Sequence record: DRR723986_1723 | Strand: one strand, 5' to 3' | DNA: 64,000 nt | Part shown: one piece after another, positions 9,901 to 31,186 of the stretch | Layout: each line of letters begins with the position of its first letter | Position numbering within the stretch: the stretch's first letter is position 1 | The notes under the pieces: generated by a model | The model's input: the letters and a program-made list of their open reading frames with translations, nothing else | The model's database searches: none | What the model was told of the DNA's origin: nothing | Made by a program: the position numbers and the translations under genes

Positions 9901-9967
9901 CCTGTCATAAATTCACAGTAAAAGCGTCGCCAGCAAGCATTCACTAATTGTGGCCGCCGCGTAGTAT
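9901..9967 (+). promoter_or_regulatory. Putative AraC-type tandem operator plus promoter for the DUF1295 gene pair
   Basis: CCTGTCATAAATTCACA matches the sites at 23472 and 27803 at 14/17. A second half-site CGTC-N7-AGCA lies 22 bp later, then TTCACT-N16-TAGTAT. Confidence 0.65.
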
Positions 9968-10002
9968 CGGCAGGCACACACTAACAATAATAGGAATGCA
10001 CC

Positions 10003-10788
10003 ATGGAACAGCAACGGGAACCGATTCCCGGCTGGGCGCGCGCTTTTCTCGCCCTCGTCGACAAACTTATCTGGAACGCACCGGGCAAACCGCGCATTCG
10101 CGTTGCCTGGGCGGTGGACTTCCACAAGATTTTTACCCTGTTCATCATCTACGCCATGATGAATTACTACGACAATTTCACCACCACCGCCTGGGTCTAC
10201 CTTGGCCTGCACGGTATTTATGGTTACTGCTGGCTGATTAAAGACTTCGGTTTTCGCGACCACCAATTCAACGACCGTATCAGCGTACTTGCCTCCATCA
10301 ACCTCTATGTTTTTCTCATCGGCTGGTACTGGATCACCCCGTGGCTGCTGATTTCGCGCTTCATCGAGCCCAGCGGCGCGGTCGTATTTGCCGCCATTGC
10401 CATTCACACGCTCGGCGTTGTCACCATGATGGCTGCCGACGGCCAGCGCCACTGGATACTTAAATACCGCCGACAACCAGGGCTGATTACCGACGGCGTC
10501 TACCGCTACACCCGCAACCCGAATTACCTCGGCGAGCTAATGCTGTACGCCGCCTACCCGATGCTGGCCCAACACTGGATCGCCTGGGCGATCTACGCGT
10601 ATATGGCTAGCTATTTCCTGGCGCGGATGAAGAACAAAGATCACGCGATCTCCCGTCACCCGGGCTGGCAGGAATACAAACAACAAACCGGCTTGCTGAT
10701 ACCCTGGCGCTTACTGACCGGCGCCGCCATTGCCGACCGCCTGAAGCAATCCCCCTCGCACCCGGAGGCCAGCATCAATGCAAAATGA
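10003..10788 (+). CDS. DUF1295 / steroid 5-alpha-reductase-like (ICMT-fold) membrane protein
   Basis: Several TM helices and the GLITDGVYRYTRNPNYLGE motif. Confidence 0.75.
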   Translation: MEQQREPIPGWARAFLALVDKLIWNAPGKPRIRVAWAVDFHKIFTLFIIYAMMNYYDNFTTTAWVYLGLHGIYGYCWLIKDFGFRDHQFNDRISVLASINLYVFLIGWYWITPWLLISRFIEPSGAVVFAAIAIHTLGVVTMMAADGQRHWILKYRRQPGLITDGVYRYTRNPNYLGELMLYAAYPMLAQHWIAWAIYAYMASYFLARMKNKDHAISRHPGWQEYKQQTGLLIPWRLLTGAAIADRLKQSPSHPEASINAK

Positions 10789-11188
10789 AACTTCCTGGAA
10801 ACGCTTTTACCGCTTCGCCGCATTCTTCAACTTCGCGGCGGCGTTTATGCTGCTATTTGCCACTGAGGCCTTCTTTGCCCTGCTGCAAATGCAAAGCCTC
10901 TATGTGCCCGAGCTACTGCCCTGGGCCCATCAATTTGGCGTGCTGGTATTGGTGTTTGGCTTTGGTTATTGGCGCATTGCCGGCAACCCAAAAAACCACA
11001 AAGACATTATCTGGATGGGCTGCATCGGCAAAACCCTGGTCTTCGTTGCGGCCTGGGTGGATACATTGAGCTTTCCGGCACTGATGCCCTTCGCTATTTT
11101 TGTGATCGCCGATCTCGCCTTTGCGGTGTTTTACGGCCTGTACCTACTCAACCATGCCCGATACGAGGGTCAGCGCCAATTGCGCTAG
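10778..11188 (+). CDS. Small 4-TM membrane protein of unknown function
   Basis: Four hydrophobic segments; start overlaps the DUF1295 gene end, with an SD-like GGAGG upstream. Confidence 0.75.
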   Translation: MQNETSWKRFYRFAAFFNFAAAFMLLFATEAFFALLQMQSLYVPELLPWAHQFGVLVLVFGFGYWRIAGNPKNHKDIIWMGCIGKTLVFVAAWVDTLSFPALMPFAIFVIADLAFAVFYGLYLLNHARYEGQRQLR

Positions 11189-11239
11189 CGCTCAACGCAC
11201 GCGTAGTGCTTGTGGGAGGCTCCTGGGCCTTCCACCTTT

Positions 11240-11449
11240 TTAATTCTCGTCAGACTCTATGGCCCGACGCTCGCGATCATAGTCATCGTAGGGCTGCACC
11301 GTCTGCGCGATACATGCCTCGTACTGAGAAGGCGGCAGCTTATCGCACTCGAAACGATTACTCGCCTGAATACTCTCGTATAACTCTCGGCTCGCACAGC
11401 CGCTGAATAAAATCAGCGCGCCAACCGCCAATACACCTTTCATCCGCAT
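11240..11449 (-). CDS. Small lipoprotein
   Basis: Lipobox FSGC, a Cys pair (FEC...EAC), GGAG SD upstream; follows rluF. Confidence 0.7.
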   Translation of the reverse strand: MRMKGVLAVGALILFSGCASRELYESIQASNRFECDKLPPSQYEACIAQTVQPYDDYDRERRAIESDEN

Positions 11450-11464
11450 ACTCCAACAATGTCG

Positions 11465-12440: not shown

Positions 12441-13220
12441 TTAACGGGCGGTATAGCCACCGTCCATAACCAGTTCCGAGCCGGTCATATAACTTGCCGC
12501 GTCGGAAAGCAAAAATACAATACCCTGGGCAATTTCCTCTGCCCGCGCCATACGTCCCATCGGGATACTGGCCACCACGCGCGTAGCAAAGGCATTGGCG
12601 TCGTCCTCTGACAGCTTGGCCAGCGCGCCGCTTACCAGAGGCGTTTCTACATAACCGGGGTGAAGGGAGTTCACGCGAATACCGTAGTCGCGATCGGCAC
12701 AATACAGCGCCAGTGACTTGGTCAGTGCGCGCACGGCGCCTTTGCTGGCGTTGTACGCTGGCAGCATTGGGTCGCCGACAATACCTTCAATCGACGAGAC
12801 ATTAACGATCGCACCGCCGCGCGATTTCATGGCCTGAATGGCCGCACGACTGCCGAGAAAAACCGCGTCGCTATTGATGGTCTGGGTGCGCCGCCACCCC
12901 TCCAGACTTTCTTCCTCGGGGCCGCAAATTACCGCGATACCCGCGTTGTTCACAACGCCATCCAGCTGACCAAAGCTGGCGACAACCGTTTCCATGCAAT
13001 GCTGCCACTGCCGCTCGTCGCACACGTCCAAGGGAAAGAATTCCGCATCGGCGCCCGCCGCGCGCAGTGCCTCGCACAGCGCTCGGCCAGCGTCCTGATC
13101 GATATCGCTCACCGCCAGCTTCGCACCTGCTGCCGCCAGGGCATGGCACGCCGCCGCGCCAATGCCTTTGGCGGCACCCGTGATCAACACCACTTTGTCT
13201 TTACAATGAATACTCATCAC
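12441..13220 (-). CDS. Short-chain dehydrogenase (3-beta/17-beta-HSD or cyclopentanol dehydrogenase-like)
   Basis: TGAAKGIG, NNAG, YNASK catalytic motif, IRVNSLHPG. Confidence 0.85.
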   Translation of the reverse strand: MMSIHCKDKVVLITGAAKGIGAAACHALAAAGAKLAVSDIDQDAGRALCEALRAAGADAEFFPLDVCDERQWQHCMETVVASFGQLDGVVNNAGIAVICGPEEESLEGWRRTQTINSDAVFLGSRAAIQAMKSRGGAIVNVSSIEGIVGDPMLPAYNASKGAVRALTKSLALYCADRDYGIRVNSLHPGYVETPLVSGALAKLSEDDANAFATRVVASIPMGRMARAEEIAQGIVFLLSDAASYMTGSELVMDGGYTAR

Positions 13221-13226: not shown

Positions 13227-14045
13227 CTACGCTGCGGTGAAACCGCCATCCACAGTCAGCTCAGCGCCACTGATATAGGCGCTGGCATCACTGGCGAGAA
13301 ACAGCGCCGCATTGGCAATATCCTCTGCTGTGCCGAGCCGCCCCATCGGGATCATCTGCTGCTCCAATACCGCACTGGCTTCCTCGCGAGACTGGGTGAG
13401 CCCAACATCCACAAAGTCGTCGTAAACCTGCTCGGCCATGGCGGTATCGATCAAACCGGGGTGCAGCGAATTGACGCGAATGCCGTAGCCAAAGCGGGCG
13501 AACTCAACCGCAGAGTGCTTGCTGATGGAGCGCACCGAGCCCTTGGTTGCACCGTAAATGCTGTGACCAGGGACGCCGATCAAGCCGGCGATAGACGACA
13601 GATTTATCACGCTGCCGCCGCGACCAAAGCAGCCGCTGGGCTGCATCGTTTCAGCCGCATAGCGCAGGCCGAGAAACACCGATTGCACATTGACCTCGTG
13701 GATACGGGTCAGTTGCTCTACCGAGTTGTCTTCCAGGCGGCCGCCAATGTAAATGCCGGCGTTGTTCACCAGAATATCCCAGCGGTTGTGCCACTGTCTC
13801 AACTCTGCCACCAAGGCCTGCCAGTCTTCCTCCAGCACCACATCTTGCTGAATAGCGCGCGCGTCAAAGCCCTGTTCATTCAGCTCCGCTGCCAGGCGCT
13901 GACAGGCGGCCACATCGATATCACTTAGCAGCACCGAGGCGCCCGAGTAAGCCATGCGCTGGGCGCAGGCCTTGCCAATGCCCGCCGCTGCTCCGGTCAC
14001 CACAGCGACTTTGCCCTGCAGCGAAAAAGGATTGTTCTCTTTCAT
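13227..14045 (-). CDS. Short-chain dehydrogenase (hydroxysteroid/cyclic alcohol dehydrogenase-like)
   Basis: TGAAAGIG, NNAG, YGATK, IRVNSLHPG. Confidence 0.85.
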   Translation of the reverse strand: MKENNPFSLQGKVAVVTGAAAGIGKACAQRMAYSGASVLLSDIDVAACQRLAAELNEQGFDARAIQQDVVLEEDWQALVAELRQWHNRWDILVNNAGIYIGGRLEDNSVEQLTRIHEVNVQSVFLGLRYAAETMQPSGCFGRGGSVINLSSIAGLIGVPGHSIYGATKGSVRSISKHSAVEFARFGYGIRVNSLHPGLIDTAMAEQVYDDFVDVGLTQSREEASAVLEQQMIPMGRLGTAEDIANAALFLASDASAYISGAELTVDGGFTAA

Positions 14046-14071: not shown

Positions 14072-15067
14072 TCAGCGCGCGGCGATATTCACGACCGCGC
14101 GACCACGAATTTGCCCCTGCAAGATTTGCCCAGCGGCGTCAGGAAGATTGTCGAAATCAATCTCAACTGCCATCGCTTCTAGTTTGTTCAGGTCGACAGA
14201 CTCGGCCAAACGCTGCCATGCGCGCTCACGGAGCGCCATTGGCGCGTGTACCGAGTCCACGCCCAGCAGGGCGACATTGCGCAGTGCAAAGGGCATCATA
14301 TTGCCGGGTAAGTCCAGGCCCTGGGCCAGGCCGCACGCGGCCACGGCGCCGTTGTAGTGAAGTTGGGCAATAACATTGGCCAGGGTATGGCTGCCACAGG
14401 AATCCACCGCCGCTGCCCAGCGGGGCGCCTGCATCATCTCACCGGCTTCTGACAACTCGCGGCGATCAATCACGGAGTTTGCACCCAGGCTCTTTAAATA
14501 GTCGCTTTCTTCAAGGCGACCCGTCGACGCTGCCACGGTATAGCCCAGGCCCGCCAACAACATAATGGACACGCTGCCCACTCCCCCCGACGCGCCGGTT
14601 ACCAGCACTTCGCCCGACTCAGGGCCAATACCGAGCTGCTCCAGTCGCAGCAGAGACAACATCGCGGTGTAGCCCGCGGTACCCAGCAGCATGGCGTGGC
14701 GGGTAGTGAAAGCCTCAGGCACCTTCAACAGGTAGTCGCTCGAAATACGCAGGCGCTGGGTATAGCCGCCATTGTGCGTTTCTGAGGCGCCATAGCCATT
14801 CATCAGCACCTTGTCACCGACCTGAAAGCGGCTGCTCTCAGACTTAACCACAGTGCCTGCCATATCAATGCCGAGAATCAGCGAAGGCTTTTGAACAATG
14901 GGAATGGCGTCGCTCATCGCCAGGCCATCTTTGTAGTTAACGGTAGAGTATTCCACCGCTACCTCCACATCACCGTCGCCAAGTTGTTCGCTGCTGAGCT
15001 GCTGAAATTCAACGCGGTAGCCACTGTCGTCGCGTACGCCAAGCAAGGCTTTGTATGTCTCTGTCAT
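14072..15067 (-). CDS. YhdH/AcuI-family MDR enoyl-CoA (acryloyl-CoA) reductase
   Basis: YSTVNYKDG, GTAGYTA, VTGASGGVGS, ACGLAQG, LLGVDSV. Confidence 0.85.
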   Translation of the reverse strand: MTETYKALLGVRDDSGYRVEFQQLSSEQLGDGDVEVAVEYSTVNYKDGLAMSDAIPIVQKPSLILGIDMAGTVVKSESSRFQVGDKVLMNGYGASETHNGGYTQRLRISSDYLLKVPEAFTTRHAMLLGTAGYTAMLSLLRLEQLGIGPESGEVLVTGASGGVGSVSIMLLAGLGYTVAASTGRLEESDYLKSLGANSVIDRRELSEAGEMMQAPRWAAAVDSCGSHTLANVIAQLHYNGAVAACGLAQGLDLPGNMMPFALRNVALLGVDSVHAPMALRERAWQRLAESVDLNKLEAMAVEIDFDNLPDAAGQILQGQIRGRAVVNIAAR

Positions 15068-15084: not shown

Positions 15085-16461
15085 TTAGTTACCCAAGCGG
15101 CGCAGGGCGCCGTTGGTTAAATAGCGGTTATAAATATCGTGATCGTTCACGCGCATCCGGTGGCCGCCAGAGATTTCTGCCAGCTGCTCTATGCGGGTCA
15201 TTTTTCCGGTCTGCACATCGAAAGCGTGAACATGGCACCACGACCAATAGGGGTGCTTACCGTCCATTACCCGGCGATCGCCGTCTTCGTATAGCCCATA
15301 GGCACCATCGAAGGAACGGAACAGATCGCCGCGCCGGTCAAAGGTGACCATGCCCAGCGGCAACTGGGTGCGCGCATCAAACCACACCCGTTTAACGCCG
15401 ACGGGGGCGCGCGGGAAGCCCGTGGGCTTGGCATCAACGGCAATGGCTTCGGGCACTAATTCCACGTCGGTATCCCAGAAGGTTTCTCCCTGTGGGCCGC
15501 CATGGGTGTTGTGCGACCAATCCTCACTTTGCGAGGCCCAGCCACCGCTGACGGCGGCCAGCATGGGGCCGCGCCACACCACTTTGTAGTCGCCCCAGGT
15601 GTGCAGGGGGTCACCCGCCGCCCAGGCGTCGGACAGGTATAGCGATGAACCCGGCACCAATGGTTCAAAGCGCTGGTCGGTGGGGAAGCGGCGAATGCGT
15701 TTAAAATCGGGAATGTAGCCGTATAACTCGGGAAATTTGTTTTGGTCGTAGTGCCAAATGTTCAAGAAGGACGTGCCGCGTACGCTGTCTGGCGCCGTGA
15801 AAAAGACACTCTGATAGCGCAGCTTGTCTTCGTGGCCCTTCCAGTAAACGCCGGGCAGTACCAAACGCCCTGTCGGCGCATATTCAGCCCAGCCATTTTC
15901 GTAGCCGTAGCTGACTTTGCCGTCGCGGTTGAGGTCGTATTCGCGGATCGCATAGAACGAAGCATCATGTCGCCCCCAGCTTAACGTTAGGCCCGCAAAA
16001 AGCTCCACACCGGTCTTGGCATCAGGAAAGGGCAAGCCACCAATCCAGGGTTTGCCGTCGGCCGTCACAACATTGCCATTGTCGTCAAAGCGCGCTTGGC
16101 CGCGGTGGCGAAAGCTCGCTTCCATATATTCCCATGGGCTCAGCTTCATCACATCGCGAGTGGTCTCACGCAACCTCAAACGACGCCCCATGTCTTTGAC
16201 TTGCATGTACTTCACCGGCTCGAGAAGATCTTTTACCAGCTCGACATTCCCGGCGTCGATGACATCGCCGACCTTGAGCTTGCCGCCGGTATATTGCTCT
16301 ATCGACAGCAACTCCTCTGGATAAGCCGCCGCATAATCGCCGTGTTTTTCCATTGCCGCCCAAGCCGGCATCAGCAGGCCCGCCCCGACAAAACCCGAGC
16401 CTACACGCAAAAACTCACGCCGGGAAAACTGCCGGTCAAACCGCCTGATATGAAAACTCAT
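15085..16461 (-). CDS. DUF1329-family periplasmic protein (paralog B) with Tat signal
   Basis: Start reassigned to ATG 16461 after GAGGA SD. FSRREFL twin-arginine motif and GLPFP motif; colinear with 19430..20809. Confidence 0.8.
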   Translation of the reverse strand: MSFHIRRFDRQFSRREFLRVGSGFVGAGLLMPAWAAMEKHGDYAAAYPEELLSIEQYTGGKLKVGDVIDAGNVELVKDLLEPVKYMQVKDMGRRLRLRETTRDVMKLSPWEYMEASFRHRGQARFDDNGNVVTADGKPWIGGLPFPDAKTGVELFAGLTLSWGRHDASFYAIREYDLNRDGKVSYGYENGWAEYAPTGRLVLPGVYWKGHEDKLRYQSVFFTAPDSVRGTSFLNIWHYDQNKFPELYGYIPDFKRIRRFPTDQRFEPLVPGSSLYLSDAWAAGDPLHTWGDYKVVWRGPMLAAVSGGWASQSEDWSHNTHGGPQGETFWDTDVELVPEAIAVDAKPTGFPRAPVGVKRVWFDARTQLPLGMVTFDRRGDLFRSFDGAYGLYEDGDRRVMDGKHPYWSWCHVHAFDVQTGKMTRIEQLAEISGGHRMRVNDHDIYNRYLTNGALRRLGN

Positions 16462-16477
16462 ACAACATCCTCGCGGT

Positions 16478-16504
16478 AAAAAAGCCGGCGACAAAGTCGC
16501 CGGC
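16478..16504 (-). terminator. Intrinsic terminator-like hairpin inside the operon
   Basis: The minus strand reads gccggcgac-ttt-gtcgccggc followed by tttttt. Confidence 0.7.
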
Positions 16505-16542: not shown

Positions 16543-18459
16543 CTAGAATTGGTAGGCTACGCGCAGACCAAATTCATCGGCCCAGTCCACGGTTTGCATG
16601 ATATTTTCGTTCTCGTTGGCGCCATCAACGTAGCCGTCCATGTGGTTGTAGAACATTTCTATGTTCCAGTTACCGGAGGGCTTCCATTTCAGAGCCGGCT
16701 GCACAAACAAGCCGCCGCGCGTGTCATACAACACCGACAAATCTGCTCGCCATACCAAACCAGGGAAGGGCTGCTGAAGGGCTAATACCAAACCATTCCA
16801 GCCACCATCCACACCTTTAGGCGTGTTGTTTACCGTGCCGCCCATACCACTTAAGTGGCGGCCAAACAGATCGCTCTCGCTGCGGTGCATCCACTGGAAA
16901 ACCATGTAGGTAGCAGGGAAACTGCGGCTGAAGCGCTGATATTTTTCTAATACCAGGGCAGTCACGTATTCATCTTCAACAATGTATTCCTGCCCCAGGT
17001 CGATAGGGGTAAAGGTTTTGTCCGGCGTGAAGGAAACCTCGAAGTTCAGAATCAACTGATCCGTCCAACTACCGGGCTCGCCACTGAATACATAGCTGAC
17101 ACCAGTGCCGAAAACATCTTCGCGGTGGTATGTGCGCTCAATGTGACCACGCAGACCGCCGCCGCCCTGACCAGACAGTGGGTTATTCAGGAAACCACCC
17201 GTCAGGATAAAGAACAGATCGAGCTCTTCTTTTGCCGCATCGATGCCCTGAACAGGCCGCGCCAGCAGCAATTGCGATGCGGGGAAGTCGGTAACAATTT
17301 TGTTCAGACCTTCGGTGCCGTCAAGGCGCGCCATACCCGCATAGGTAAACCACTCCTCAGCACTCCATACCCCGGTGGGGTCAATTTCAAGCGGGGTCTC
17401 CGCAAGGATGGCGCCCGAAAATGGGATGCCCGGTGCATCGCGGTTCACACCCGATTTGGTCCAGCGCACAACACCGTCAGGGTTGTAGCGGTTGGTATAC
17501 ATAAACTGCAGACCAAAGTCGCCAATAAAGCCTTTCAAGCGGAAACCGCTATTCACTTCTTCGTCAACACTGCTGTAGCGATCGTGCACGGTAAACTGCG
17601 AAGGAATCACGTTGTAGGGTGTGTTCGGGTTGCCGTAAATGGTCGGCTGGAAGCTCTGCGCAAACATGTCCAGTTCCCAGTTGGAATTCAGCTGGTAGGA
17701 CACGCGGATGGCCGGTGAGGCGATACGCTCATCGGCGTACTCCTCGGAAGCGAAATCGAAGATTGAGTGACGGCGCAAGTCCAAGCCGTTGGCCACGTCG
17801 AATACCCGGAAGAACAAGGCCTGTCCCCAGGCAATTTGCTGGTTACCGGCGCGCACCAATAACGGCCCGTTCTGATAGTCCAGGTACAGCGACGGAAAGT
17901 CGACCATGTAGTTGTCGCCAGCGATCTCCAGAGGATTCTGTTCACCGCCGTTTTCAAAGTCGTCGTACTCGAAATAATTGGGCTCGCCATAGAGGTAACC
18001 CGCGGCGTTGCTGTTCACCGAATCCGGATCAAATTCATCGTATTCGGCTGCGTCAAAAATGCCGCGCAGCTTTGCCGTCGCTGACCAGTTGTCACTAAAC
18101 TTCAGCTGCAAGGTGCTCTCTAAACGCACCTGGCTGTGATTAAAATCGTTGTCGGCCGGAACACCGTTGCGCGTCGCGGTATCCGAGATCGGCGCACTGA
18201 TAGGAATGGGTAAATTCAGGCCGAGCAACGTACCCACGTTGAGGCCACCGTTACGCTCAACCTCCTTGCCATTAAAGAGGTTACCGCGCTGGTTGTAGGG
18301 GTTTTCGTCACTTACCGTTTTGGCAGCCAGCTCTACACGAATCAAACCACTAAGGCTGTAGTCGACACCCAGCAGCTCACCACTGGCCGACCACGATGGA
18401 CTAGACAGTGCCATCGCCGTTGTGGCGAGAGCCCAATTAAGCCGATTATTATTTTTCAT
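16543..18459 (-). CDS. DUF1302-family outer membrane beta-barrel protein
   Basis: Signal peptide, RAGNQQIAWGQALF motif, C-terminal VAYQF barrel signature; DUF1329/RND context. Confidence 0.8.
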   Translation of the reverse strand: MKNNNRLNWALATTAMALSSPSWSASGELLGVDYSLSGLIRVELAAKTVSDENPYNQRGNLFNGKEVERNGGLNVGTLLGLNLPIPISAPISDTATRNGVPADNDFNHSQVRLESTLQLKFSDNWSATAKLRGIFDAAEYDEFDPDSVNSNAAGYLYGEPNYFEYDDFENGGEQNPLEIAGDNYMVDFPSLYLDYQNGPLLVRAGNQQIAWGQALFFRVFDVANGLDLRRHSIFDFASEEYADERIASPAIRVSYQLNSNWELDMFAQSFQPTIYGNPNTPYNVIPSQFTVHDRYSSVDEEVNSGFRLKGFIGDFGLQFMYTNRYNPDGVVRWTKSGVNRDAPGIPFSGAILAETPLEIDPTGVWSAEEWFTYAGMARLDGTEGLNKIVTDFPASQLLLARPVQGIDAAKEELDLFFILTGGFLNNPLSGQGGGGLRGHIERTYHREDVFGTGVSYVFSGEPGSWTDQLILNFEVSFTPDKTFTPIDLGQEYIVEDEYVTALVLEKYQRFSRSFPATYMVFQWMHRSESDLFGRHLSGMGGTVNNTPKGVDGGWNGLVLALQQPFPGLVWRADLSVLYDTRGGLFVQPALKWKPSGNWNIEMFYNHMDGYVDGANENENIMQTVDWADEFGLRVAYQF

Positions 18460-19428: not shown

Positions 19429-19429
19429 A

Positions 19430-23420: not shown

Positions 23421-23498
23421 AGATTAATCGCTTATTAAAAGGCCGGTAATGCCTGTTCCCGACCCTTTTGCTGTTAATTTACGACAGCGTTTTCCAGC
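23421..23498 (-). promoter_or_regulatory. Putative AraC-activated promoter of the RND-DUF1329-YCF48-DUF1302 operon
   Basis: The minus strand has GCTGTCGTAAATTAACA, a second half-site GGTC-N7-GGCA at +22, then TAATCT 23 nt later. 23472-23498 is 24/27 identical to 27803-27829. Confidence 0.7.
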
Positions 23499-25102
23499 TA
23501 TGACGCGAAGTCATAAACATGATTTTTTTGCTCTTGGAAAAGCTGATAACAGAAGCGCGCCTGCGGTTTTTCCGAGGCGGTTTTCGGTATTTCTGACATG
23601 ACCTGGATGTAGCTCGGCAGCTCTGTTCTACCCAGCACGGCTCGACAGTGATCGAGTAGTTTTTGCGGGCTGAACAAACACACATCCACCGGCACTACCG
23701 CGGCAATGACATCTTTCTCGCCGGGCACACCACTGGTGGCGGGAATACCATAGACAAAAACATCGGCGACATCGGGATACTCGGCGATGGTTTTTTCAAT
23801 TTTTGCGGTATCGATAAATTCGCCATTACGGCGAATTTCATCACCCTTACGGCTGTCGAAATAAAACCACCCGTCCTCATCACGGTGACCAATATCGCCG
23901 GTAAAGAACACACCGTTTTGTACTTTCTTCGCCGATGCTTCTGGATTTTTAAAGTAGCTTACTGCCAGTGTGGGTTGCCCTGGCGCCGCCTCGAACACAA
24001 TTTCGCCGCGCTCATTCGGGGCGCATTCGCGGCCGTCTTCGTCGATGACTTTGGCAATCAGGCTGGCGGGGGGCTTACCGATACTGCCGATCGGACCACC
24101 CGGTGGATTAAAGGTCATCCCACCTTCGGCGGCGCCGTAAAATTCGAACAGCTCAACGTCGAAACGCTGTTTGAAATCTTCCCATATTGCGGCGGGCATA
24201 CCCGCACTGAGAATATAGCGAACCGGGTTATCGGCATCGTCGGCTTTGCGCGGCTCACTGTATATTGCCGTGGTCATGCCGCCGAGCAGGTTAAACATGG
24301 TGCAGCCATAGTGGCGGCAAATATCCCATAAACGGGATTTACTAAACTTGCGGCTAATGACCCCGCGCAGGCCCATTTTCAACACATTGCCCAGGGTAAC
24401 CAGCTGCGCGTTAGCGTGGGTTAGCGACAGGCCGGTGTAGGGGCGGTCCTCACTTTGCAAACCGATCGCGGGCCCAATTGATGCCACATTGTCAAAGCGT
24501 GTATAGGGCGCGCGTATCGCTTTTGGGTCGCCGGTAGTGCCAGAGGTATACAGCATTTGCATAACCTCGTCGGCGCTCTCTACCCGACAGACGCGCTCTT
24601 CATAGGGACCGGAAATCACGTCGCTGTATCGTGCCACGCGCTCGTCAGCCGATTGCAGGCTAACCTTCTCGCCGGTGTCCATCACCCAGATCCAGCGGAT
24701 CTGCGGCATGTCCTTACACACTTGGTAAACGCTATTAAAGCAGTAGTCTGCGCAGACCACGCCCGAGCACTCGGCCCAGCTCAGCATATAGCGCAAACGG
24801 TCGCCGCCGGTACGCGGATCAATCGGCACGTATACCGTGCCCGCCAGCGAGCTGCCAACCATGCAGTCGATAAATTCCGGGTGGTTTTGCATCACTAAAG
24901 CAAAGCTACTGCCGCGCTCCATGTTCTGCTCCAACAAGGCCTGGTTGACTCGCTGACCTTGTTCCCACAAATCGCGGTAGCTTCGCTTTTCATCTTCAAA
25001 GCCACCACAGGGTTTAATGTTTACAAATGTCAGCACGTCCAGATCGGGCTGTTGCTGCATTTTCGCCTCAATTAAATTGGCGAATATTCGTTGATCTTTC
25101 AT
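23498..25102 (-). CDS. Acyl-CoA ligase (CaiC-like AMP-binding enzyme)
   Basis: YTSGTTGDPK, EFYGAAEG, FFTGDIG, PKTASEK. Start reassigned to ATG 25102. Confidence 0.88.
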   Translation of the reverse strand: MKDQRIFANLIEAKMQQQPDLDVLTFVNIKPCGGFEDEKRSYRDLWEQGQRVNQALLEQNMERGSSFALVMQNHPEFIDCMVGSSLAGTVYVPIDPRTGGDRLRYMLSWAECSGVVCADYCFNSVYQVCKDMPQIRWIWVMDTGEKVSLQSADERVARYSDVISGPYEERVCRVESADEVMQMLYTSGTTGDPKAIRAPYTRFDNVASIGPAIGLQSEDRPYTGLSLTHANAQLVTLGNVLKMGLRGVISRKFSKSRLWDICRHYGCTMFNLLGGMTTAIYSEPRKADDADNPVRYILSAGMPAAIWEDFKQRFDVELFEFYGAAEGGMTFNPPGGPIGSIGKPPASLIAKVIDEDGRECAPNERGEIVFEAAPGQPTLAVSYFKNPEASAKKVQNGVFFTGDIGHRDEDGWFYFDSRKGDEIRRNGEFIDTAKIEKTIAEYPDVADVFVYGIPATSGVPGEKDVIAAVVPVDVCLFSPQKLLDHCRAVLGRTELPSYIQVMSEIPKTASEKPQARFCYQLFQEQKNHVYDFAS

Positions 25103-25119
25103 GGTGTCCCCCAACAGTC

Positions 25120-26355
25120 TTATTCTTTGGACAAAATGCTTAACACCAGCGCAGCAGCGTCGCTGCCAATGAAGCCGCCGCCGTTTTCAGCCAGAGCATG
25201 CTTCGCGCCGTGAACTTGTCGGTCTCCCGCCTCGCCGCGCAGCTGTGTTACCAACTCGACGATTTGGGCGGCACCAGTGGCGCCAATCGGGTGACCCTTG
25301 CGCATTAGTCCACCCGAGGTATTCACCGGCACGCGACCGCCCAGCGTGGATTCACCGCGAGCGACAAAGTCGCCGCCTTCGCCTTCTGCACACAGGCCGA
25401 GGTATTCGTAGTATTTAATTTCAGAGATCGCCGAAGCATCGTGCAGCTCGACGCAGTCGACATCGTCGGCGCCGATGCCCGCTTGCTGATAAATGGCTTC
25501 CGCGGCCTGCGGCACCATTTCCGGCTCGTCGTCAACGCGGTCCCAACCACTGTGCAGAGAAGAGGCGCGTACGCGCACGCAGCGCGACATACCCAGCTCT
25601 CGCGCTTTCTTTTCACTCACCATGACCAGCGCCGCCGCGCCGTCGCCAATGGGCGCGCACATTGGCAGGGTCAATGGGTCGACAATCGCACGCGCCGACA
25701 AGACGTCTTCGGCGGTAATACGGTGGCGAAATTGAGAGAGCGGGTTGAGGCTGCCGTGAATGGAGTTCTTCGCCGACACCGCCGCCAGTTGTTCACGGGT
25801 GGTGCCATACTGGTGCATATGTTCACGCGCCCAGGTGGCGTAAATATCGATAAACAGCGATCGACTGATACCGGCCTGGCTCATATCCAGGTCCATGCCG
25901 ATGGCGGCATTGCGGGCTTGCAGGCCTTCTCGAATACTGTCCATCTGGTCGATATCCACCGCGCCGGTAAATACCGAAAAGGTTTTTTCTTTATCTTGGT
26001 GATAGAGCTTTTCGTAACCGCACACCAACACCACATCGTAGACGCCGAGGCTGATCATGGTGGCGGCTTGCTGAAAGGCCGTCGCCGAGGTGGCGCAGGC
26101 ATTTTCGACATTGATAACAGGGATGCGCCCAATGCCCATGTTGCGCAGCACCACCTGGCCTGGCACACAGACTTGGCCGGTAATGACCGCCGCCGCGCCA
26201 TTTCCCATGTAGGCGGCGTTCAACTCAGAGGCTTCCACATCAGCATCGCGCAGGGCCTGCTGAATAGCAGCGCCGGCGAGCTGACTCAAACTCTGGTCAA
26301 TAGCATTCCCAAAGGGCGTCATGCCGACGCCCGCAATATAGGCTTTTTGTTCCAC
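25120..26355 (-). CDS. SCP2-type thiolase-family protein
   Basis: NVENACAT, VELHDA, NTSGGL..KGHPIGATG; ENGGG at the C-terminus with no second Cys. Confidence 0.88.
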   Translation of the reverse strand: MEQKAYIAGVGMTPFGNAIDQSLSQLAGAAIQQALRDADVEASELNAAYMGNGAAAVITGQVCVPGQVVLRNMGIGRIPVINVENACATSATAFQQAATMISLGVYDVVLVCGYEKLYHQDKEKTFSVFTGAVDIDQMDSIREGLQARNAAIGMDLDMSQAGISRSLFIDIYATWAREHMHQYGTTREQLAAVSAKNSIHGSLNPLSQFRHRITAEDVLSARAIVDPLTLPMCAPIGDGAAALVMVSEKKARELGMSRCVRVRASSLHSGWDRVDDEPEMVPQAAEAIYQQAGIGADDVDCVELHDASAISEIKYYEYLGLCAEGEGGDFVARGESTLGGRVPVNTSGGLMRKGHPIGATGAAQIVELVTQLRGEAGDRQVHGAKHALAENGGGFIGSDAAALVLSILSKE

Positions 26356-26368: not shown

Positions 26369-27697
26369 TTAGTTGCCCAGTTTTTCTTCGTCGATCAAGT
26401 AGCTGCCGCCCTTAATAGCGAGCACTTCGTTGCAGCCGTCTTCAATCATTGATGCGCGGGCATCGCGGAGCATTTTTTCCATCGGGTACTCGCGAGTCAG
26501 GCCATTGCCGCCGAATATTTGTAGCGCATCGCTGCACACTTCGAAGGCCTGTTGCGTGCCGGTGGTTTTCGAGAACATGGCTGAACACAGCGAGGGGATC
26601 GCCGTTGCCGGGTCGTTGTTGTAGTCGAGGGCACGACGCGTCACTGCGCGCGAGGTCTCCACCTTGCGGAACATATGGAAGAGGCGGCTTTTCACCGATT
26701 GGTGATGAATAATCTGCGTGCCACCAGCAACGCGTTCGTGAGCGTAGTCGAGCGCCATGTCCGCGGCCGCCTGCGCCAAGCCGGTGAAGGTAGCCCCCAT
26801 CAGTGCGTTGGCTTCAGCGTGAATGCAGTACACCGCGCGCTGGTAATCTTCAGGACCAGCCAGCAGATATTTGCGTGGCAGCCGAACATTATCGAAGAAG
26901 ATTTCACCTTGGTTCAGCGCGCGCTGCCCCATTTTATCCAGCGGCTTGCCGCGAGAGATGCCCGGCAGGTTCATCGGGAAAACCAGCACGCAGCCATTGT
27001 GCGGATCAACACCATTACCGCTGTCGGCCGCACAGTACAGAATACAAACGTCGGCGATCACGCCGTTGGAAACCCACGCCGCTTTCTGGCCGTTCAGAAT
27101 AATGTCGTCGCCGGTCAAATCGGCAACCAGATTCGGGCGGCCGTACTTGCCACCCGGCTGAGCGGCAGCGCCGTTGGGGTCGAGCATATCTGAACCGTGG
27201 TCGGGCTCGGTGATACCCCAGCAGCCAAGCATCGCGTCGGGGAATTCTTCCAGTAGGTCAGCGCGACCAAATTTGGCAGACAACCACTGCGGCAAAATAC
27301 CGGCACCCACAGAAATCGCCAGACCGGCGTCGCCATAGCCCAGCTCTTCAAACAGTATGCTAAACAGCAGGGCGGCCTCGCGCGGCGGCATCTCTGACAA
27401 GGCTTCAATCGTTACGCCCAGCTCCAAGTACTTCTCACGGAATTCCCAAAAGCGCGAATCCTTGGCAATCACCTCTTCCGGGCTCAGCTTATCCAGTTCA
27501 ATACCAATGGGGCGCACCACGTTAATCGCAAAGTCGCGCAGGGTTTGTTGGAATTCAGCAATATGCTCGGGCAAACTCGCCTCGGCACCTGAGATGGTCA
27601 GCTTGCTTTTGGGGGTAGCGGGCCAGCGGTACAGAGGGGCTTCTAAGTTGCGGTAGTCAACATCCACAGGGCCTGTGGCAAGAGCGGTATCGTTCAT
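26369..27697 (-). CDS. Acyl-CoA dehydrogenase
   Basis: GITEPDHGSD, NGQKAWVSNG, QIFGGNG..EYPMEKMLRDAR..IEDG. Confidence 0.9.
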   Translation of the reverse strand: MNDTALATGPVDVDYRNLEAPLYRWPATPKSKLTISGAEASLPEHIAEFQQTLRDFAINVVRPIGIELDKLSPEEVIAKDSRFWEFREKYLELGVTIEALSEMPPREAALLFSILFEELGYGDAGLAISVGAGILPQWLSAKFGRADLLEEFPDAMLGCWGITEPDHGSDMLDPNGAAAQPGGKYGRPNLVADLTGDDIILNGQKAAWVSNGVIADVCILYCAADSGNGVDPHNGCVLVFPMNLPGISRGKPLDKMGQRALNQGEIFFDNVRLPRKYLLAGPEDYQRAVYCIHAEANALMGATFTGLAQAAADMALDYAHERVAGGTQIIHHQSVKSRLFHMFRKVETSRAVTRRALDYNNDPATAIPSLCSAMFSKTTGTQQAFEVCSDALQIFGGNGLTREYPMEKMLRDARASMIEDGCNEVLAIKGGSYLIDEEKLGN

Positions 27698-27751: not shown

Positions 27752-27829
27752 ATAGTAGCCAGCGCCCCGGCAAAGTTAGATGTTTACAGCAGACAATCTG
27801 GTTGTTAATTTACGACAGCAATTTTCAGC
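27752..27829 (-). promoter_or_regulatory. Putative AraC-activated promoter of the acyl-CoA dehydrogenase-thiolase-ligase operon
   Basis: The minus strand has TGTC-N7-AACA twice at 22 bp spacing, then TACTAT 23 nt later; divergent from the araC gene at 27843. Confidence 0.72.
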
Positions 27830-27842
27830 GCGTGACGTGTTC

Positions 27843-28883
27843 ATGGAGATTCGATCTTCTTTATCAGTGCCGCCGGCCAGACATCTTGGCTACGGTCTAA
27901 ACCCCCTGATTACCCTGCTCAAGGAGCATGGTGCCGACCCGTTGCTGGTGCTGGATAAAGCCAATATTCCACCCGAAGCCTTGGACAGCCCCACCTACCA
28001 ACTTACCCCACAGCAGGAATTGAGCTTTACCTCCGAGGTGATTCGCGCACTGGATAAGCCCGAGCTGGGGCTGGTGGTGGGCAGCCGCTATCACCTGTCG
28101 GCGTATGGCTTATTGGGGCTGGCGGTGATGACCAGCGAGAACCTGCTTCAGGGTATGCAGGTGCTGTATAAAAATATTCTGATGACGTGGACCTATATGC
28201 AATGGATAACCACCATTCGCGACGACCGCGCCTATATCAGTTTGGAGCCTCTGCGCGACCTCGGTGACAGCCACCAATACATGATTGATCGCGGCCTAGT
28301 CGCCTCGCATATTATTTTTAAGGAAGCCCTCGGCCAGCCCATTCCCGTACACGAGGTGCATTTACGCCAGCCGGAACCCAGCTACGCAGAAGAGTACCGG
28401 CGCTATTTCAACTGCCCGGTGTATTTCGAAGCTGCCGAAAACTGCTATGTCTTCGACAGCGCGCTGCTGTACCAAGAATTGCTGCAGGCCGAACCAGAAA
28501 CTGCCCGCATTTACGACAGTCAGTGCGAAAAGATATGCGAACAACTGGCCAAGAATTACACCTTCTCGGACGTGGTGCGCAATCAAATCCTGTCATCACC
28601 GCGGGAAATTTTTACACTGGAAACCATCGCCGATCGCTTAGGCATGACCGCTCGCACGGTGCAGCGCAAGCTCAGCCAGGAAGACAGCAGCTACAAAACC
28701 ATTCTGGAGGACGTGCGCAAAAATCTGGCGGTGGAGTACCTGCAAACCACCTCATTTACGCTGGAAGAAATTGCCGTGCGCCTCGGCTATGCCGACTCAT
28801 CCAGCTTTTGTCACGCTTACAAACGCTGGACCGGCGTTAACCCCGGCGAGCGCCGTCAGGCGGCAGGCGCGCCGCGAAACTGA
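27843..28883 (+). CDS. AraC-family transcriptional regulator (Arabinose_bd_2/OruR type), AraC1
   Basis: YGLLGLAVMTS N-domain; C-terminal HTH with IAVRLGYADSSSFCHAYKRWTG. Start reassigned to ATG 27843. Confidence 0.9.
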   Translation: MEIRSSLSVPPARHLGYGLNPLITLLKEHGADPLLVLDKANIPPEALDSPTYQLTPQQELSFTSEVIRALDKPELGLVVGSRYHLSAYGLLGLAVMTSENLLQGMQVLYKNILMTWTYMQWITTIRDDRAYISLEPLRDLGDSHQYMIDRGLVASHIIFKEALGQPIPVHEVHLRQPEPSYAEEYRRYFNCPVYFEAAENCYVFDSALLYQELLQAEPETARIYDSQCEKICEQLAKNYTFSDVVRNQILSSPREIFTLETIADRLGMTARTVQRKLSQEDSSYKTILEDVRKNLAVEYLQTTSFTLEEIAVRLGYADSSSFCHAYKRWTGVNPGERRQAAGAPRN

Positions 28884-29863
28884 GAGGGCGGACAGCCCGA
28901 CCAGCGCCGAAAGGCATGGCAAAAGTGAGCGGCATCGCTGTAGCCCAGCAGCGATGCCACCTGCTCAATCGACATTGCCGTGCCCTGTAAATACTCCCGC
29001 GCTAGCTCATAGCGCAGGTCATCAACAATTTTTTGATAGCCGCTACCACTGGCCCGCAAGCGGCGCCGCAGTGTGCGCCCCGAGATATTTAACTTTTCCG
29101 CCACCGCCTCAATACCAGGAAAGTAACCCGGCCTGAGCAGAAGCATTTCCCTCACTTCATCGACAATATTGTGCTCTTCTGACAGGCGCGCCTTGATGCG
29201 CTCGCAGCGATCTATGCACAGCGCCGCGGTATCGCTGTCGCACTGCAACAACGGTGTTTCCAATACATCGAGGGAGAAGCGCATGGCGTTCTCTGTTGCG
29301 CCAAACGTGGGAGCCACGCCAAATACTTCCCGGTAACGGCTCAACTCCACCTGCCGGGCGTGGCGAAAACACACCTCAGCAGGGTGGAAGTCATCGCCCA
29401 GCAAGCCGCGCAAAATCATGAAAGTGGCGGTCATTTCCCGCTCGCTGAGCATGGGTAGATCTTCGACGTGGTAATCATCGGCGGCCATTGCCATCACCAC
29501 AAAGCCGTCTTCAACGCGCATGTGGTGCTCGTAAAAGGCAAAACTCAGCTCCACAAAGTGGTAGGCCAACTTCAGCGCCTCGCGCATTGTCGAGGCACTC
29601 ATCAATGCGTAGCCATACAAGCCGAATACGCTCAGTGGATAGCAACTGCCCACATACAAACCTATACCGGGGTCACCGCTCACCCGGCGCAGGTTGCGCA
29701 GGAAGGTCAGCTCCTGACTGAGGTTAACGTGCTGTTCCGGGCGCTCCAGGATCGACAGCGACAAACCCGTGGCTGTGAGCGACTGCGCGACAGAAATGCC
29801 CTCGCTGCGCAGCTTCATCAACGGCGCAAGAATGGTTTTGGCAGAGTGGTATTTGGGCTTCAT
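28856..29863 (-). CDS. AraC-family transcriptional regulator, AraC2
   Basis: FGLYGYALMSA, VASLLGYSDAAHFCHAFRRWSG. Confidence 0.9.
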   Translation of the reverse strand: MKPKYHSAKTILAPLMKLRSEGISVAQSLTATGLSLSILERPEQHVNLSQELTFLRNLRRVSGDPGIGLYVGSCYPLSVFGLYGYALMSASTMREALKLAYHFVELSFAFYEHHMRVEDGFVVMAMAADDYHVEDLPMLSEREMTATFMILRGLLGDDFHPAEVCFRHARQVELSRYREVFGVAPTFGATENAMRFSLDVLETPLLQCDSDTAALCIDRCERIKARLSEEHNIVDEVREMLLLRPGYFPGIEAVAEKLNISGRTLRRRLRASGSGYQKIVDDLRYELAREYLQGTAMSIEQVASLLGYSDAAHFCHAFRRWSGCPPSQFRGAPAA

Positions 29864-29894
29864 GGGTCACCGATTTTTTGCTCACGCTAGCATC

Positions 29895-29961
29895 GCTGTC
29901 CTCATTTCGCAAATAGCTGTCCTCATTTCGCATTCAGACGAGAGCATCACTTAATTAACGT
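29895..29961 (+). promoter_or_regulatory. Perfect 17-bp direct repeat (putative AraC2 operator) plus promoter
   Basis: GCTGTCCTCATTTCGCA at 29895-29911 and 29916-29932 (21 bp period), then TTCAGA-N17-TAACGT. Confidence 0.75.
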
Positions 29962-30037
29962 AATTAGCGACGCAAATCGCCGCTCAGGCGGCGTGGCCAA
30001 GTACTCACTGAAAAACAAAAATTACAGGAGCAAGACC

Positions 30038-31150
30038 ATGTCAGAAGCACCCAAAATTCTCATCTATGGCGCAAGCGGTTACACCGGCAAACTCGTGGCC
30101 GAGTGCCTGGCGCAGCGCAACCTGCCCTTCTACTTTGTTGGTCGCAACCAGCAAAAACTCGAAGACGCCCTCGCCATCGTGGAAGAGCGACTGGGCCACA
30201 AAGCCCCGGCCACCATCGTTCGCGCCAGCAACGACAAAGCCGAATTGGCGCCACTGTTTGCAAAAGTGGAAGTGGTTATCAACGTTGCCGGCCCCTTCAT
30301 GCAGCTGGCATGGCCGGTGGTTGAAGCCTGCCTGGAAAACAACTGCCACTACCTGGACACCACTGGCGAGCAAGACTTCGTGATCGCCGTTCGCGACAAA
30401 TACGGCAAGGCTTTCGCCGACAAAAACCTGTTGCTCAACCCCGCCAACTCCTACATGTGGGCAGCGGGTGCCCTGGCCGCTGAAGTTGTACTGGAAACCG
30501 AAGGCGTCGACACTCTCGACATTACCTACCAGATCAATAACGCGCTGCCTTCGCAGGCCTCAACCAAATCCTTCCTGCGCATGGTAAACAACCCGCAGTA
30601 CATGATTAAAGAGGGCGAAATGGTTGAGTGGCAGGGCGACCGTCACTTCACTGTTTGCGTTCCCCACCTGTCGCAGCCGGTGCTGGCCCTGCCCTGGAGC
30701 GGTGGCTGTGAGCCCGCTTGGTACGAGCACGACGACCGCGTGCGCAACTGTCGCGTACTGACCGCTTTCGGTGATGAAATCATTGAAAACGTCGTTGCGG
30801 TTATCCATCGCTTCAACGAAGAATCCAAGGGTATGAGTCAGGAAGAAAAGGAAGAGCTCACCAACCGCTACGGCGATGAAATGACCCCTGCCGAGCCACC
30901 CAAAGACGATCGCGACCTGCACCGCACCGTGATCACCTGTATTGGTCAGGGCCGCCAAGTGACGACGGTATTCCCGCTGTCGCTGAACGCTCCGTATACC
31001 TTTACTGGTGAAATCTGCGCCGAGGCCGCACAACGCCTGCTCAACGGCCAACTCAAAGCCGCCGGTTTCCAAAGCGCCACAGGGGCATTCGGACACCGCG
31101 AGCTGCTACAAACCTTCCACGAACTGGGTTACACCAACCTGCCAGCGTAA
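30038..31150 (+). CDS. Saccharopine dehydrogenase-like / trans-acting enoyl reductase family protein (DUF5938-type)
   Basis: IYGASGYTGKL Rossmann motif, INVAGPF, HYLDTTGEQ. Start reassigned to ATG 30038 after AGGAG. Confidence 0.8.
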   Translation: MSEAPKILIYGASGYTGKLVAECLAQRNLPFYFVGRNQQKLEDALAIVEERLGHKAPATIVRASNDKAELAPLFAKVEVVINVAGPFMQLAWPVVEACLENNCHYLDTTGEQDFVIAVRDKYGKAFADKNLLLNPANSYMWAAGALAAEVVLETEGVDTLDITYQINNALPSQASTKSFLRMVNNPQYMIKEGEMVEWQGDRHFTVCVPHLSQPVLALPWSGGCEPAWYEHDDRVRNCRVLTAFGDEIIENVVAVIHRFNEESKGMSQEEKEELTNRYGDEMTPAEPPKDDRDLHRTVITCIGQGRQVTTVFPLSLNAPYTFTGEICAEAAQRLLNGQLKAAGFQSATGAFGHRELLQTFHELGYTNLPA

Positions 31151-31154
31151 AACT

Positions 31155-31186
31155 AACAAGCCCCGCTGTCGCGGGGCTTGTTGTTT
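31155..31186 (+). terminator. Intrinsic terminator
   Basis: aacaagccccgc-tgtc-gcggggcttgtt followed by gttt. Confidence 0.75.

Follow-up and report, generated by a model that had tools for sequence, protein, structure and literature searches.

A candidate regulon for the acquisition and CoA-dependent breakdown of a hydrophobic substrate in Neomelitea salexigens

Does a transporter that is encoded among catabolic genes bring its hydrophobic substrate into the cell, or does it remove it? This question surrounds the DUF1302/DUF1329/BNR/RND cassette, which is widespread among oil-, terpene-, aromatics- and ester-degrading Proteobacteria. What it does, and in which direction, has been a matter of dispute since 2016, with cell-wall export, an esterase role, efflux and substrate transport all put forward in the published passages. 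It is raised again by positions 9901..31186 of a 64 kb stretch of DNA (record DRR723986_1723; hereafter the window) from the marine bacterium Neomelitea salexigens DSM 19753 (Spongiibacteraceae). An earlier annotation made from the letters alone (the original prediction) had proposed that this region encodes an uncharacterised trans-envelope uptake and CoA-catabolism system. We followed it up with a list of the open reading frames (ORFs) and with Pfam and NCBIfam profile searches of the window ORFs. Judging from gene content and control elements, we put the chance at roughly 55% that the genes constitute one regulon for acquiring a hydrophobic growth substrate and breaking it down via CoA thioesters.

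Gene order, control elements and conservation

The ORF list and both profile searches confirmed the run of eleven minus-strand genes in the reported order, from an acyl-CoA dehydrogenase (ACAD) through the second short-chain dehydrogenase/reductase (SDR), together with the two AraC genes and the DUF5938-type reductase. The system comprises the following genes and elements (aa, amino acids; E-values in brackets).

9902..9918, plus strand: O1, 17-bp operator-like site, ~93 bp upstream of the DUF1295 start
10003..10788, plus: membrane protein of the DUF1295/PEMT/ICMT/steroid-5-alpha-reductase clan, 261 aa (Pfam)
10778..11188, plus: orf136, hydrophobic ORF of 136 aa, no family, overlapping the DUF1295 stop by 11 nt
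12441..13220, minus: SDR oxidoreductase 2, 259 aa (adh_short_C2 2.5e-62)
13227..14045, minus: SDR oxidoreductase 1, 272 aa (adh_short_C2 9.4e-61)
14072..15067, minus: YhdH/AcuI-family NADPH enoyl-CoA (acrylyl-CoA-type) reductase, 331 aa (TIGR02823)
15085..16461, minus: DUF1329-B, periplasmic LolA-like protein with a twin-arginine translocation (Tat) signal (DUF1329 1.5e-50, LolA_like 2.5e-7)
16484..16504, minus: terminator-like hairpin, 9-bp stem with 8 G-C pairs, then a T run
16543..18459, minus: DUF1302 outer-membrane beta-barrel, 638 aa, Sec signal (DUF1302 9.8e-31)
18481..19428, minus: Ycf48-like BNR beta-propeller, Sec signal (PSII_BNR 6.7e-13; 5ojp 4.6e-12)
19430..20809, minus: DUF1329-A, Tat-signal periplasmic LolA-like protein, 459 aa (DUF1329 4.8e-66, LolA_like 5.5e-10)
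20869..23328, minus: MMPL/HAE3-like RND inner-membrane transporter, 819 aa (MMPL 4e-21)
23471..23487, minus: O2, 17-bp operator-like site, ~150 bp upstream of the RND start
23498..25114, minus: AMP-forming acyl-CoA ligase, 538 aa (AMP-binding 8.4e-49)
25120..26355, minus: thiolase-like enzyme of the SCP2/BbsB group, 411 aa (6hsj, 7pxp)
26369..27697, minus: ACAD, 442 aa (Acyl-CoA_dh_1 and _M)
27780..28883, plus: AraC1, PF12625 ligand domain and HTH_18 (Pfam)
27802..27818, minus: O3, 17-bp operator-like site, ~113 bp upstream of the ACAD start
28856..29863, minus: AraC2, PF12625 and HTH_18 (Pfam)
29895..29932, plus: direct repeat in the AraC2/DUF5938 intergenic region, GCTGTCCTCATTTCGCA in two exact copies with a spacing of 21 bp
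29993..31150, plus: Sacchrp_dh_NADP + DUF5938 oxidoreductase (DUF5938 2.4e-36, Sacchrp_dh_NADP 3.5e-15)

The palindrome-like 17-mer CTGTCRTAAATTMACAG occurs three times in the 64 kb when up to two mismatches are allowed, against 0.02 matches expected, and a count of 3 was reached in 0 of 100 shuffles. O2 is located in the A/T-rich 169-bp spacer between the ligase and RND genes, O3 in the divergent region between ACAD and AraC1. The claim that the DUF1295 genes carry the same operator as the minus-strand run thus holds, and the sites recur at equivalent places in Zhongshania and other Spongiibacteraceae loci. A scan of eight such loci of ~22 kb and of a more distant locus (L015, see below), tolerating up to three mismatches, returned 22 matches in the eight relatives, every one on the gene strand and placed upstream of DUF1295 (6 loci), ACAD (8) or RND (8); there was no match elsewhere in these eight loci and none in L015. 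When the two cis-elements were searched for in the loci as exact patterns, the window's own copy alone matched. The shared and conserved operator suggests that transporter and catabolic genes are co-regulated.

The second cis-element is the direct repeat in front of the DUF5938 gene. A TGTCCnnATTTCGCA-type repeat pair is kept in 9/9 Spongiibacteraceae loci, both copies being degenerate in L008, and its spacing of 21 bp matches that of AraC-family sites. Since the 17-mer and the direct repeat have the pattern TGTC...A.TT..CA in common, they may be read by two paralogous AraC regulators. AraC1 and AraC2 each carry an N-terminal Arabinose_bd domain (PF12625) and a C-terminal HTH_18 domain; the NCBIfam models for QhpR, CypR and GliR match both, all below cut-off. 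The two genes are convergent, with an overlap of 28 bp between the 3' ends as listed (28856-28883). Several listed starts are over-long, namely those of BNR (true start M21), DUF1329-B (ATG 16461) and the DUF5938 gene (conserved start at ~30038), and probably also that of AraC1, whose true start would lie downstream of O3.

It is important to note that the gene run is not one uninterrupted operon but consists of at least three units, ACAD-thiolase-ligase, RND-DUF1329-A-BNR-DUF1302 and DUF1329-B-AcuI-SDR-SDR, because the operator-bearing 169-bp spacer precedes RND and the terminator-like hairpin precedes DUF1329-B. A hairpin followed by a T run, with changed stem sequences, recurs in 12 of 18 adjacent DUF1302/DUF1329-B pairs as judged by eye. 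The last unit would be expressed via read-through or separately. A promoter consensus scan of the window gave fewer matches than in shuffles and thus carries no information. The G+C content, 0.53-0.59 elsewhere, falls to 0.495 at 22001-24000, which covers the 5' part of RND and the ligase-RND spacer.

For a wider comparison we scanned one genome per species with the RND protein, which yielded 36 loci (the window being L007), and mapped 21 window proteins onto all of them by tblastn. The eight other Spongiibacteraceae loci (L001-L006, L008, L009), from Zhongshania species and metagenome-assembled genomes (MAGs), keep a core of AraC2, AraC1, ACAD-thiolase-ligase, the five transporter genes and DUF5938. 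AcuI-SDR-SDR is kept in seven of the eight, the contig of L008 ending first. The proposed inclusion of the DUF1295 gene in the system is supported, for in six related loci it stands with orf136 directly beside DUF5938; the description as a DUF1295 pair does not hold, as there is one DUF1295-clan gene followed by the family-less orf136. The latter has 52-55% identity in these six loci and 65% in L005, where the contig starts inside it. From the arrangement in the six relatives it follows that the two genes moved to the far end in Neomelitea. In the MAG Zhongshania Lab_640_Crude_bin.4 the whole cluster is present twice, on two contigs (L001, L002), one copy being nearest to Z. aliphaticivorans and the other to Z. 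aquimaris/aquatica, so that either the cluster is duplicated or the bin mixes two populations.

The order RND, DUF1329-A, BNR, DUF1302, DUF1329-B is found in 19 of the 36 loci, among them Nevskiales, Sinimarinibacterium, Parvibaculum, Rhodobiaceae and Halieaceae. Exceptions are L010 and L022, without DUF1329-B within reach, L012 without DUF1329-A, L017 with a displaced DUF1329-B and L024 with another order; L013, L016 and L019 run into contig ends. In L015, a MAG labelled Geothermobacter, genes for ACAD, thiolase and ligase (58-59% identity) lie downstream of the cassette, which is an independent arrangement of the same enzyme-cassette partnership. Transport and catabolic genes form one conserved unit, the ACAD-thiolase-ligase genes standing beside the cassette in eight other Spongiibacteraceae loci and in L015. 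Chance adjacency was considered as well; the conserved operator and L015 argue against it.

Around the cassettes of 11 distant loci we counted AMP-ligase (5), SCP2-type thiolase (4), SDR (4), medium-chain dehydrogenase/reductase (3), hydantoinase/acetone-carboxylase-like (3), P450 (2) and flavin-containing/Baeyer-Villiger monooxygenase-like (FMO/BVMO-like; 1) genes, besides biotin carboxylases and acetoacetate decarboxylase; ORFs were picked greedily, so some genes were missed. As these neighbours are lipid, ketone or hydrocarbon enzymes, the cassette acts like a module linking up with different hydrophobe pathways. Nine further loci (L028-L036) have an RND homologue of 54-64% identity with no DUF1329, BNR or DUF1302 gene within 10 kb; they represent a partner-less form of the same RND clade (e.g. 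L031, 8674-12412). An ACAD-like gene with 22-26% identity to the window ACAD directly precedes RND in seven of these nine, the exceptions being L030 and L035.

Transporter components, enzymes and neighbouring genes

Four families of the AmeABCD type (DUF1302, DUF1329, BNR and MMPL RND) are encoded side by side within 15085-23328. Both DUF1329 proteins have a twin-arginine motif at the N-terminus, SRRSFL in DUF1329-A and SRREFL in DUF1329-B, and in DUF1329-A the residues R12, R13 and F15 are invariant in 22/22 sequences (the window protein and 21 homologues). The two paralogues share 53% identity. In a quick IQ-TREE run with 43 proteins, 22 A and 21 B sequences were split by a branch with a Shimodaira-Hasegawa-like approximate likelihood-ratio test (SH-aLRT) value of 100. 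Since each clade holds Gamma- as well as Alphaproteobacteria, the duplication is old and both copies have been retained. A PDB sequence search with DUF1329-A gave no match, and its structure predicted from 22 sequences had a mean predicted local distance difference test (pLDDT) score of 45, too poor for a fold search; the LolA-like fold is therefore taken from Pfam alone. A complex prediction for DUF1329-A (42-458) and BNR (27-314), in which alignments were not used, scored 0.01 against a mark of 0.34, which gives no verdict either way. BNR is the least conserved component (26-55% identity, versus 60-86% for DUF1329-A).

BNR and DUF1302 carry Sec-type signals, and DUF1302 ends in YQF. The DUF1302 model (pLDDT 75, predicted template-modelling score 0.78) has as its best PDB folds the porins OmpU, OmpF and MOMP, with a probability of 1.00 and a template-modelling score by target of ~0.5. 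This predicted porin-like fold would agree with the barrel that ECLIPSE, in the published passages, modelled for the Pseudomonas homologue alongside a barrel-DUF1329 pair.

For the RND protein the best NCBIfam model is TIGR00921 (HAE3) with 7.1e-44 and 150 bits, under the cut-off of 351.9. Its hydrophobic stretches form two blocks flanking two large loops. D328 (in GIITDAAG) and D690-Y691 (in GIDYGIY) are invariant in 34/34 sequences, i.e. the window protein and 33 homologues, after one over-long or over-short ORF of 35 had been left out. In MmpL3 the proton relay consists of an Asp in transmembrane segment 4 (TM4) and an Asp-Tyr pair in TM10, and by analogy the conserved residues may be read as such a relay. 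Neither a membrane-fusion (HlyD-type) protein nor an OEP/TolC-type channel gene was detected by Pfam in 9901-31186; the sole OEP gene of the window (4419-5855) sits among housekeeping genes.

No enzyme of the cluster reaches an NCBIfam equivalog. The ligase is best matched by PRK06155 (269 bits vs 722) and is distantly similar to the steroid-22-oyl-CoA synthetase CasI (195 bits vs 900) and to FadD17. ACAD matches short- and medium-chain acyl-CoA dehydrogenases at ~1e-31. The reductase belongs to the TIGR02823 YhdH subfamily (398 bits, cut-off 297) and scores 432.4 bits with the AcuI model NF051456, just under its 440. A dimethylsulfoniopropionate (DMSP)/acrylate pathway, to which an AcuI-like gene could point, was considered and rejected, as there is no other DMSP gene and the companions are of the lipid type. 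The DUF5938 oxidoreductase has weak PDB matches only, to its Rossmann part.

The original prediction had drawn on hydroxysteroid dehydrogenase (HSD)-like SDRs, a 5-alpha-reductase-like protein and an SCP2-thiolase as pointers to a steroid-, terpenoid- or alicyclic-like substrate, and all three turned out to be weak. SDR 2 is best matched by an (R)-specific alcohol dehydrogenase model (257 bits, below the 400 cut-off) and SDR 1 by generic SDR and glucose 1-dehydrogenase subfamily models, whereas the 7alpha-HSD model reaches 160 bits against a cut-off of 350. The SDRs thus appear closer to secondary-alcohol and glucose dehydrogenases than to HSDs. The DUF1295-clan protein matches PEMT (1e-8, 36 bits), DUF1295 (2e-8, 34.4 bits) and ICMT (6e-8, 33.5 bits); Steroid_dh (PF02544; 5.6e-6, 26.8 bits, cut-off 22.6) ranks below these, and reductase and methyltransferase are not told apart by the scores. 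Its nearest Atlas cluster is DUF1295/ICMT/PEMT (score 0.97). orf136 has hydrophobic segments and matches solely 'hypothetical' Atlas clusters.

The nearest PDB entries of the thiolase-like enzyme are 6hsj, an SCP2-thiolase of type 1 (1.2e-64), and BbsB, 7pxp (3.5e-63). The nucleophile Cys87 and the His of GHPIGATG are present. At the HDCF motif, however, the window protein and eight homologues have HDAS and the L015 protein HDAT, so that the Cys occurs in 0/10, and no Cys was seen in the C-terminal ENGGGF stretch. The HDCF cysteine is also missing from BbsB (HDAF), 7yvy and 4yzo. The active site therefore looks BbsB-like rather than like that of SCP2 type 1. Taken together, the enzyme set suggests that the substrate chain contains C=C bonds as well as hydroxyl or oxo groups.

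Two further genes fall inside 9901..31186 and are outside the system.

11243-11449, minus strand: small ORF of ~68 aa with a lipoprotein-like signal (…LFSGC), no family, between orf136 and rluF
11465-12265: rluF, housekeeping (NCBIfam 348.7 bits vs 318 cut-off)

The remaining window genes are housekeeping or unrelated (rho, ubiD, waaA, the OEP gene, parE, polA, znuA and others). Next to the DUF5938 gene lie a 362-aa signal-peptide protein without family (31282-32370, minus strand), seen among the 36 loci solely in the window's own, and an 813-aa predicted lipoprotein (32443-34884, minus), which has a LAAC lipobox followed by a Gly/Ser-rich linker, is very acidic, has no Pfam or NCBIfam family and adjoins the cluster in Neomelitea only. 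For the 362-aa, 813-aa, 136-aa and ~68-aa ORFs, Pfam gave no usable family at E-values up to 1. At 49987-53281 (plus) a putative Zn protease, an inactive-transglutaminase/7TM protein and an ATP-grasp protein (ATPgrasp_ST) form a recurrent combination. Two long ORFs overlap on opposite strands at 44362-45801 (plus, 479 aa, no Pfam family) and 44578-45849 (minus). Rfam and tRNA scans of the window gave no match.

Direction of transport and nature of the substrate

How might these parts work together? In the regulon that we propose, an AraC-type regulator would sense the compound and activate the three 17-mer promoters, i.e. those of DUF1295-orf136, ACAD-thiolase-ligase and RND-DUF1329A-BNR-DUF1302, while the second AraC protein probably acts at the direct repeat before the DUF5938 oxidoreductase. 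The DUF1302 barrel would let the compound across the outer membrane, the two LolA-like DUF1329 paralogues, exported via Tat, would shield the lipid in the periplasm, and the Ycf48-like propeller together with a proton-driven HAE3/MMPL-type RND protein would handle it at the inner membrane. The ligase could then trap the lipid as its CoA ester, and ACAD, the thiolase-like enzyme, the YhdH/AcuI-type reductase, the two SDRs and the accessory reductases would work on a chain with double bonds and hydroxyl or oxo groups, which is possibly branched or alicyclic. The regulon as such and the trans-envelope composition of the cassette have good support. For the physical assembly we infer an arrangement from models of homologues, since AlphaFold models in passages of the Foldy paper comprise a barrel-DUF1329 pair and a DUF1329-BNR-RND trimer, for which substrate transport was proposed (PMC10866462).

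Sequence cannot decide between import and efflux, and the published data point both ways. We lean towards a net inward direction, at somewhat less than even odds, because of the ester and n-C28 data described below, the ligase next door and the lack of classical efflux partners; transport in both directions, or none of the options weighed here, takes up the remainder. An Ame-type, substrate-induced efflux or tolerance pump is a real possibility, although a clearly less probable one. It would expel excess toxic substrate or intermediate through the DUF1302 barrel and leave the rest to the enzymes. AmeABCD was named and deleted in Castellaniella defragrans 65Phen by Puentes-Cala and Harder, and in passages of this paper, the sole deletion study of the cassette type, monoterpene tolerance went down, Nile Red accumulation went up, acetate rescued partly, and the authors concluded efflux (PMC6394551). 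The direction is also that of the bacterial RND transporters named in passages of two papers, HpnN and the MMPL family included, all of which move substrate outward (PMC6394551; PMC6304351). Betaproteobacterial cassettes in phenol/toluene regulons were read as solvent-stress protection in passages by Suvorova and Gelfand, and the conserved TM4 Asp and TM10 Asp-Tyr would, by analogy, fit a proton-driven exporter. Against a pump stand the Pseudomonas putida KT2440 homologues PP_0765/PP_0766 (DUF1302/DUF1329) and PP_2018/PP_2019 (BNR/RND), which, according to the published passages, are cofit and whose mutants fail on Tween 20 and butyl stearate (10.1101/2020.07.04.188060; PMC10866462). They are thus needed for growth on non-toxic esters and not for tolerance (10.1101/2020.07.04.188060), and the original prediction was correct, as far as these passages go, in linking homologues to fatty acid esters through P. 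putida fitness screens; Thompson et al. proposed an esterase role for the proteins (10.1101/2020.07.04.188060). Moreover, Gregson et al. describe, in the passages available, a Thalassolituus oleivorans MMPL protein with a LolA-like part and a neighbouring porin that are strongly induced on solid, insoluble n-C28 (PMC6304351). The cassette also lacks the membrane-fusion and OEP/TolC-type partners of tripartite pumps, has the ligase on one side and further catabolic genes on the other, and occurs in two arrangements with ACAD-thiolase-ligase. Export of an own envelope lipid or cell-wall component, as proposed by Price et al., with the catabolic neighbourhood serving envelope remodelling (surface hydrophobicity, vesicles), is the least probable option. 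According to passages of that work the four families are cofit in Shewanella, Kangiella and Pseudomonas and have pleiotropic phenotypes, and Delftia outer-membrane vesicles or nanopods contained DUF1302 and DUF1329 proteins; HpnN, a characterised HAE3 member, moves the cell's own lipid, hopanoid (PMC6394551). In the window, by contrast, cassette and catabolic operons have a specific operator in common, and the different catabolic gene sets in different lineages are more readily explained by a substrate-specific accessory than by a housekeeping function in the envelope.

That the substrate is a sterol or steroid, with the cluster as an uptake and (side-chain) degradation module, we regard as very unlikely, if marginally less so than envelope export. 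In the published passages growth on cholesterol is described for Spongiibacteraceae (BD1-7 clade), Halieaceae and a Zhongshania strain, so that the idea is not absurd; the distant similarity of the ligase to CasI and FadD17 goes in the same direction, and SCP2-group thiolases and DUF1329 genes do occur in steroid clusters, although the one of C. testosteroni (ORF61) is not required there (Price et al.). The cluster itself, however, holds nothing steroid-specific. Among the 29 flanking ORFs scanned there is no gene for steroid ring degradation such as KshA, HsaC or another 9,10-seco gene, and Pfam detected none among the 54 window ORFs, nor a MaoC-type hydratase or a heteromeric ACAD pair in the window. 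The SDRs are not HSD equivalogs. Ltp2-type aldolases lack the nucleophile Cys, which the thiolase-like enzyme keeps, and Ltp2 (6ok1) is matched with 1.7e-31 as against 1.2e-64 for the best entry. Elsewhere this cassette stands beside P450/BVMO or carboxylase genes. As candidate substrates we would place branched, isoprenoid or alicyclic acids before steroids, and likewise oxygenated fatty compounds or esters.

Besides the deletion phenotype, the outward-moving relatives, the solvent-stress regulons and the export proposal of Price et al., several features of the locus weigh against an acquisition regulon. Shared regulation is as compatible with a tolerance pump as with an importer. The thiolase-like enzyme is without the second catalytic Cys; BbsB-type thiolases use a DUF35-type partner, and the ORF list contains no DUF35/BbsA-like ORF in the cluster. 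The beta-oxidation cycle is incomplete, as Pfam detected no enoyl-CoA hydratase in the cluster, and an ACAD and an enoyl-CoA reductase within one regulon look opposed.

A more specific version of import, which we consider rather doubtful, draws on an analogy with eukaryotes. In the NPC1-NPC2 cholesterol hand-off, an RND-superfamily protein takes lipid from a small soluble non-cytoplasmic carrier into the membrane. The bacterial cassette might be an inward, proton-driven counterpart, in which DUF1329-B would take the lipid from the barrel, DUF1329-A, docked with the propeller on RND, would feed the inner membrane, and the ligase would then trap the lipid. The two DUF1329 proteins would thereby divide a labour that is done by one protein in Ame and P. 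putida. If this were true, bacteria would for the first time have been shown to import a nutrient lipid by means of an RND protein. Import as such, if true, would mean that RND transporters can no longer be seen solely as exporters, and it would explain how insoluble lipids pass the periplasm in Gram-negative degraders. The locus offers a compact test bed in marine bacteria that are not pathogens, with everything in one place, two conserved cis-elements, two candidate regulators and, next to the cassette, a ligase whose substrate range would reveal the compound; the two old DUF1329 paralogues are separable by deletion (barrel side versus RND side).

Relation to known systems

With NPC1-NPC2 the likeness would be a functional analogy only, since DUF1329 is LolA-like and not an ML-domain protein, and the outer-membrane barrel is extra in bacteria. 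The window RND matches the MMPL family in Pfam and keeps the TM4 Asp and TM10 Asp-Tyr of MmpL3; its matches to HpnN and MmpL3 models and structures are weak, every specific model staying far under its cut-off (HpnN 31 bits vs 752, best PDB entry 1e-6). HpnN, unlike the window RND, needs no encoded partner in the periplasm or outer membrane, and the lipid that it exports is the cell's own, according to the published passages (PMC6394551). Among the enzymes, the thiolase-like protein resembles BbsB (7pxp) in that the HDCF Cys is replaced, whereas 6hsj keeps it.

The T. oleivorans proteins TOL_3187/TOL_3188 are, by description, like those of the window, comprising an MMPL-type RND with a LolA-like domain and an adjacent porin. 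There, however, the LolA-like domain is fused to MMPL, and the published passages mention no BNR or DUF1302 (PMC6304351). For the AupA/AupB alkane uptake proteins the paper's passages name no Pfam family, and no link is claimed. The P. putida system occupies two loci and has a single DUF1329 together with a LuxR-type regulator, whereas the window has one locus, two DUF1329 paralogues and AraC-type regulators.

By its families the cassette is of the AmeABCD type. AmeABCD combines a DUF1302 outer-membrane protein, a DUF1329/LolA-like protein, a COG4447 Ycf48-like BNR protein and an HAE3-type RND (the window RND being HAE3-like, with a score under the cut-off), encoded together, as the published passages state, inside a catabolic island for a hydrophobic substrate. 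The transporter type can therefore not be called uncharacterised, since it has been deleted and phenotyped (PMC6394551) and substrate transport has been proposed (PMC10866462) in the passages cited. The order ameA (DUF1302)-B (DUF1329)-C (BNR)-D (RND) with a single DUF1329 differs from that of the window, which has a hairpin and a second, anciently diverged DUF1329, and the neighbours are monoterpene enzymes in the one case and CoA-ligase, ACAD and thiolase in the other. In the passages of the literature on these families, on Zhongshania and on Melitea salexigens, we found no description of the five-gene form with two DUF1329 proteins or of the Spongiibacteraceae regulon. The cassette is a variant of the published AmeABCD type, with five genes, two old DUF1329 paralogues and a defined operator set.

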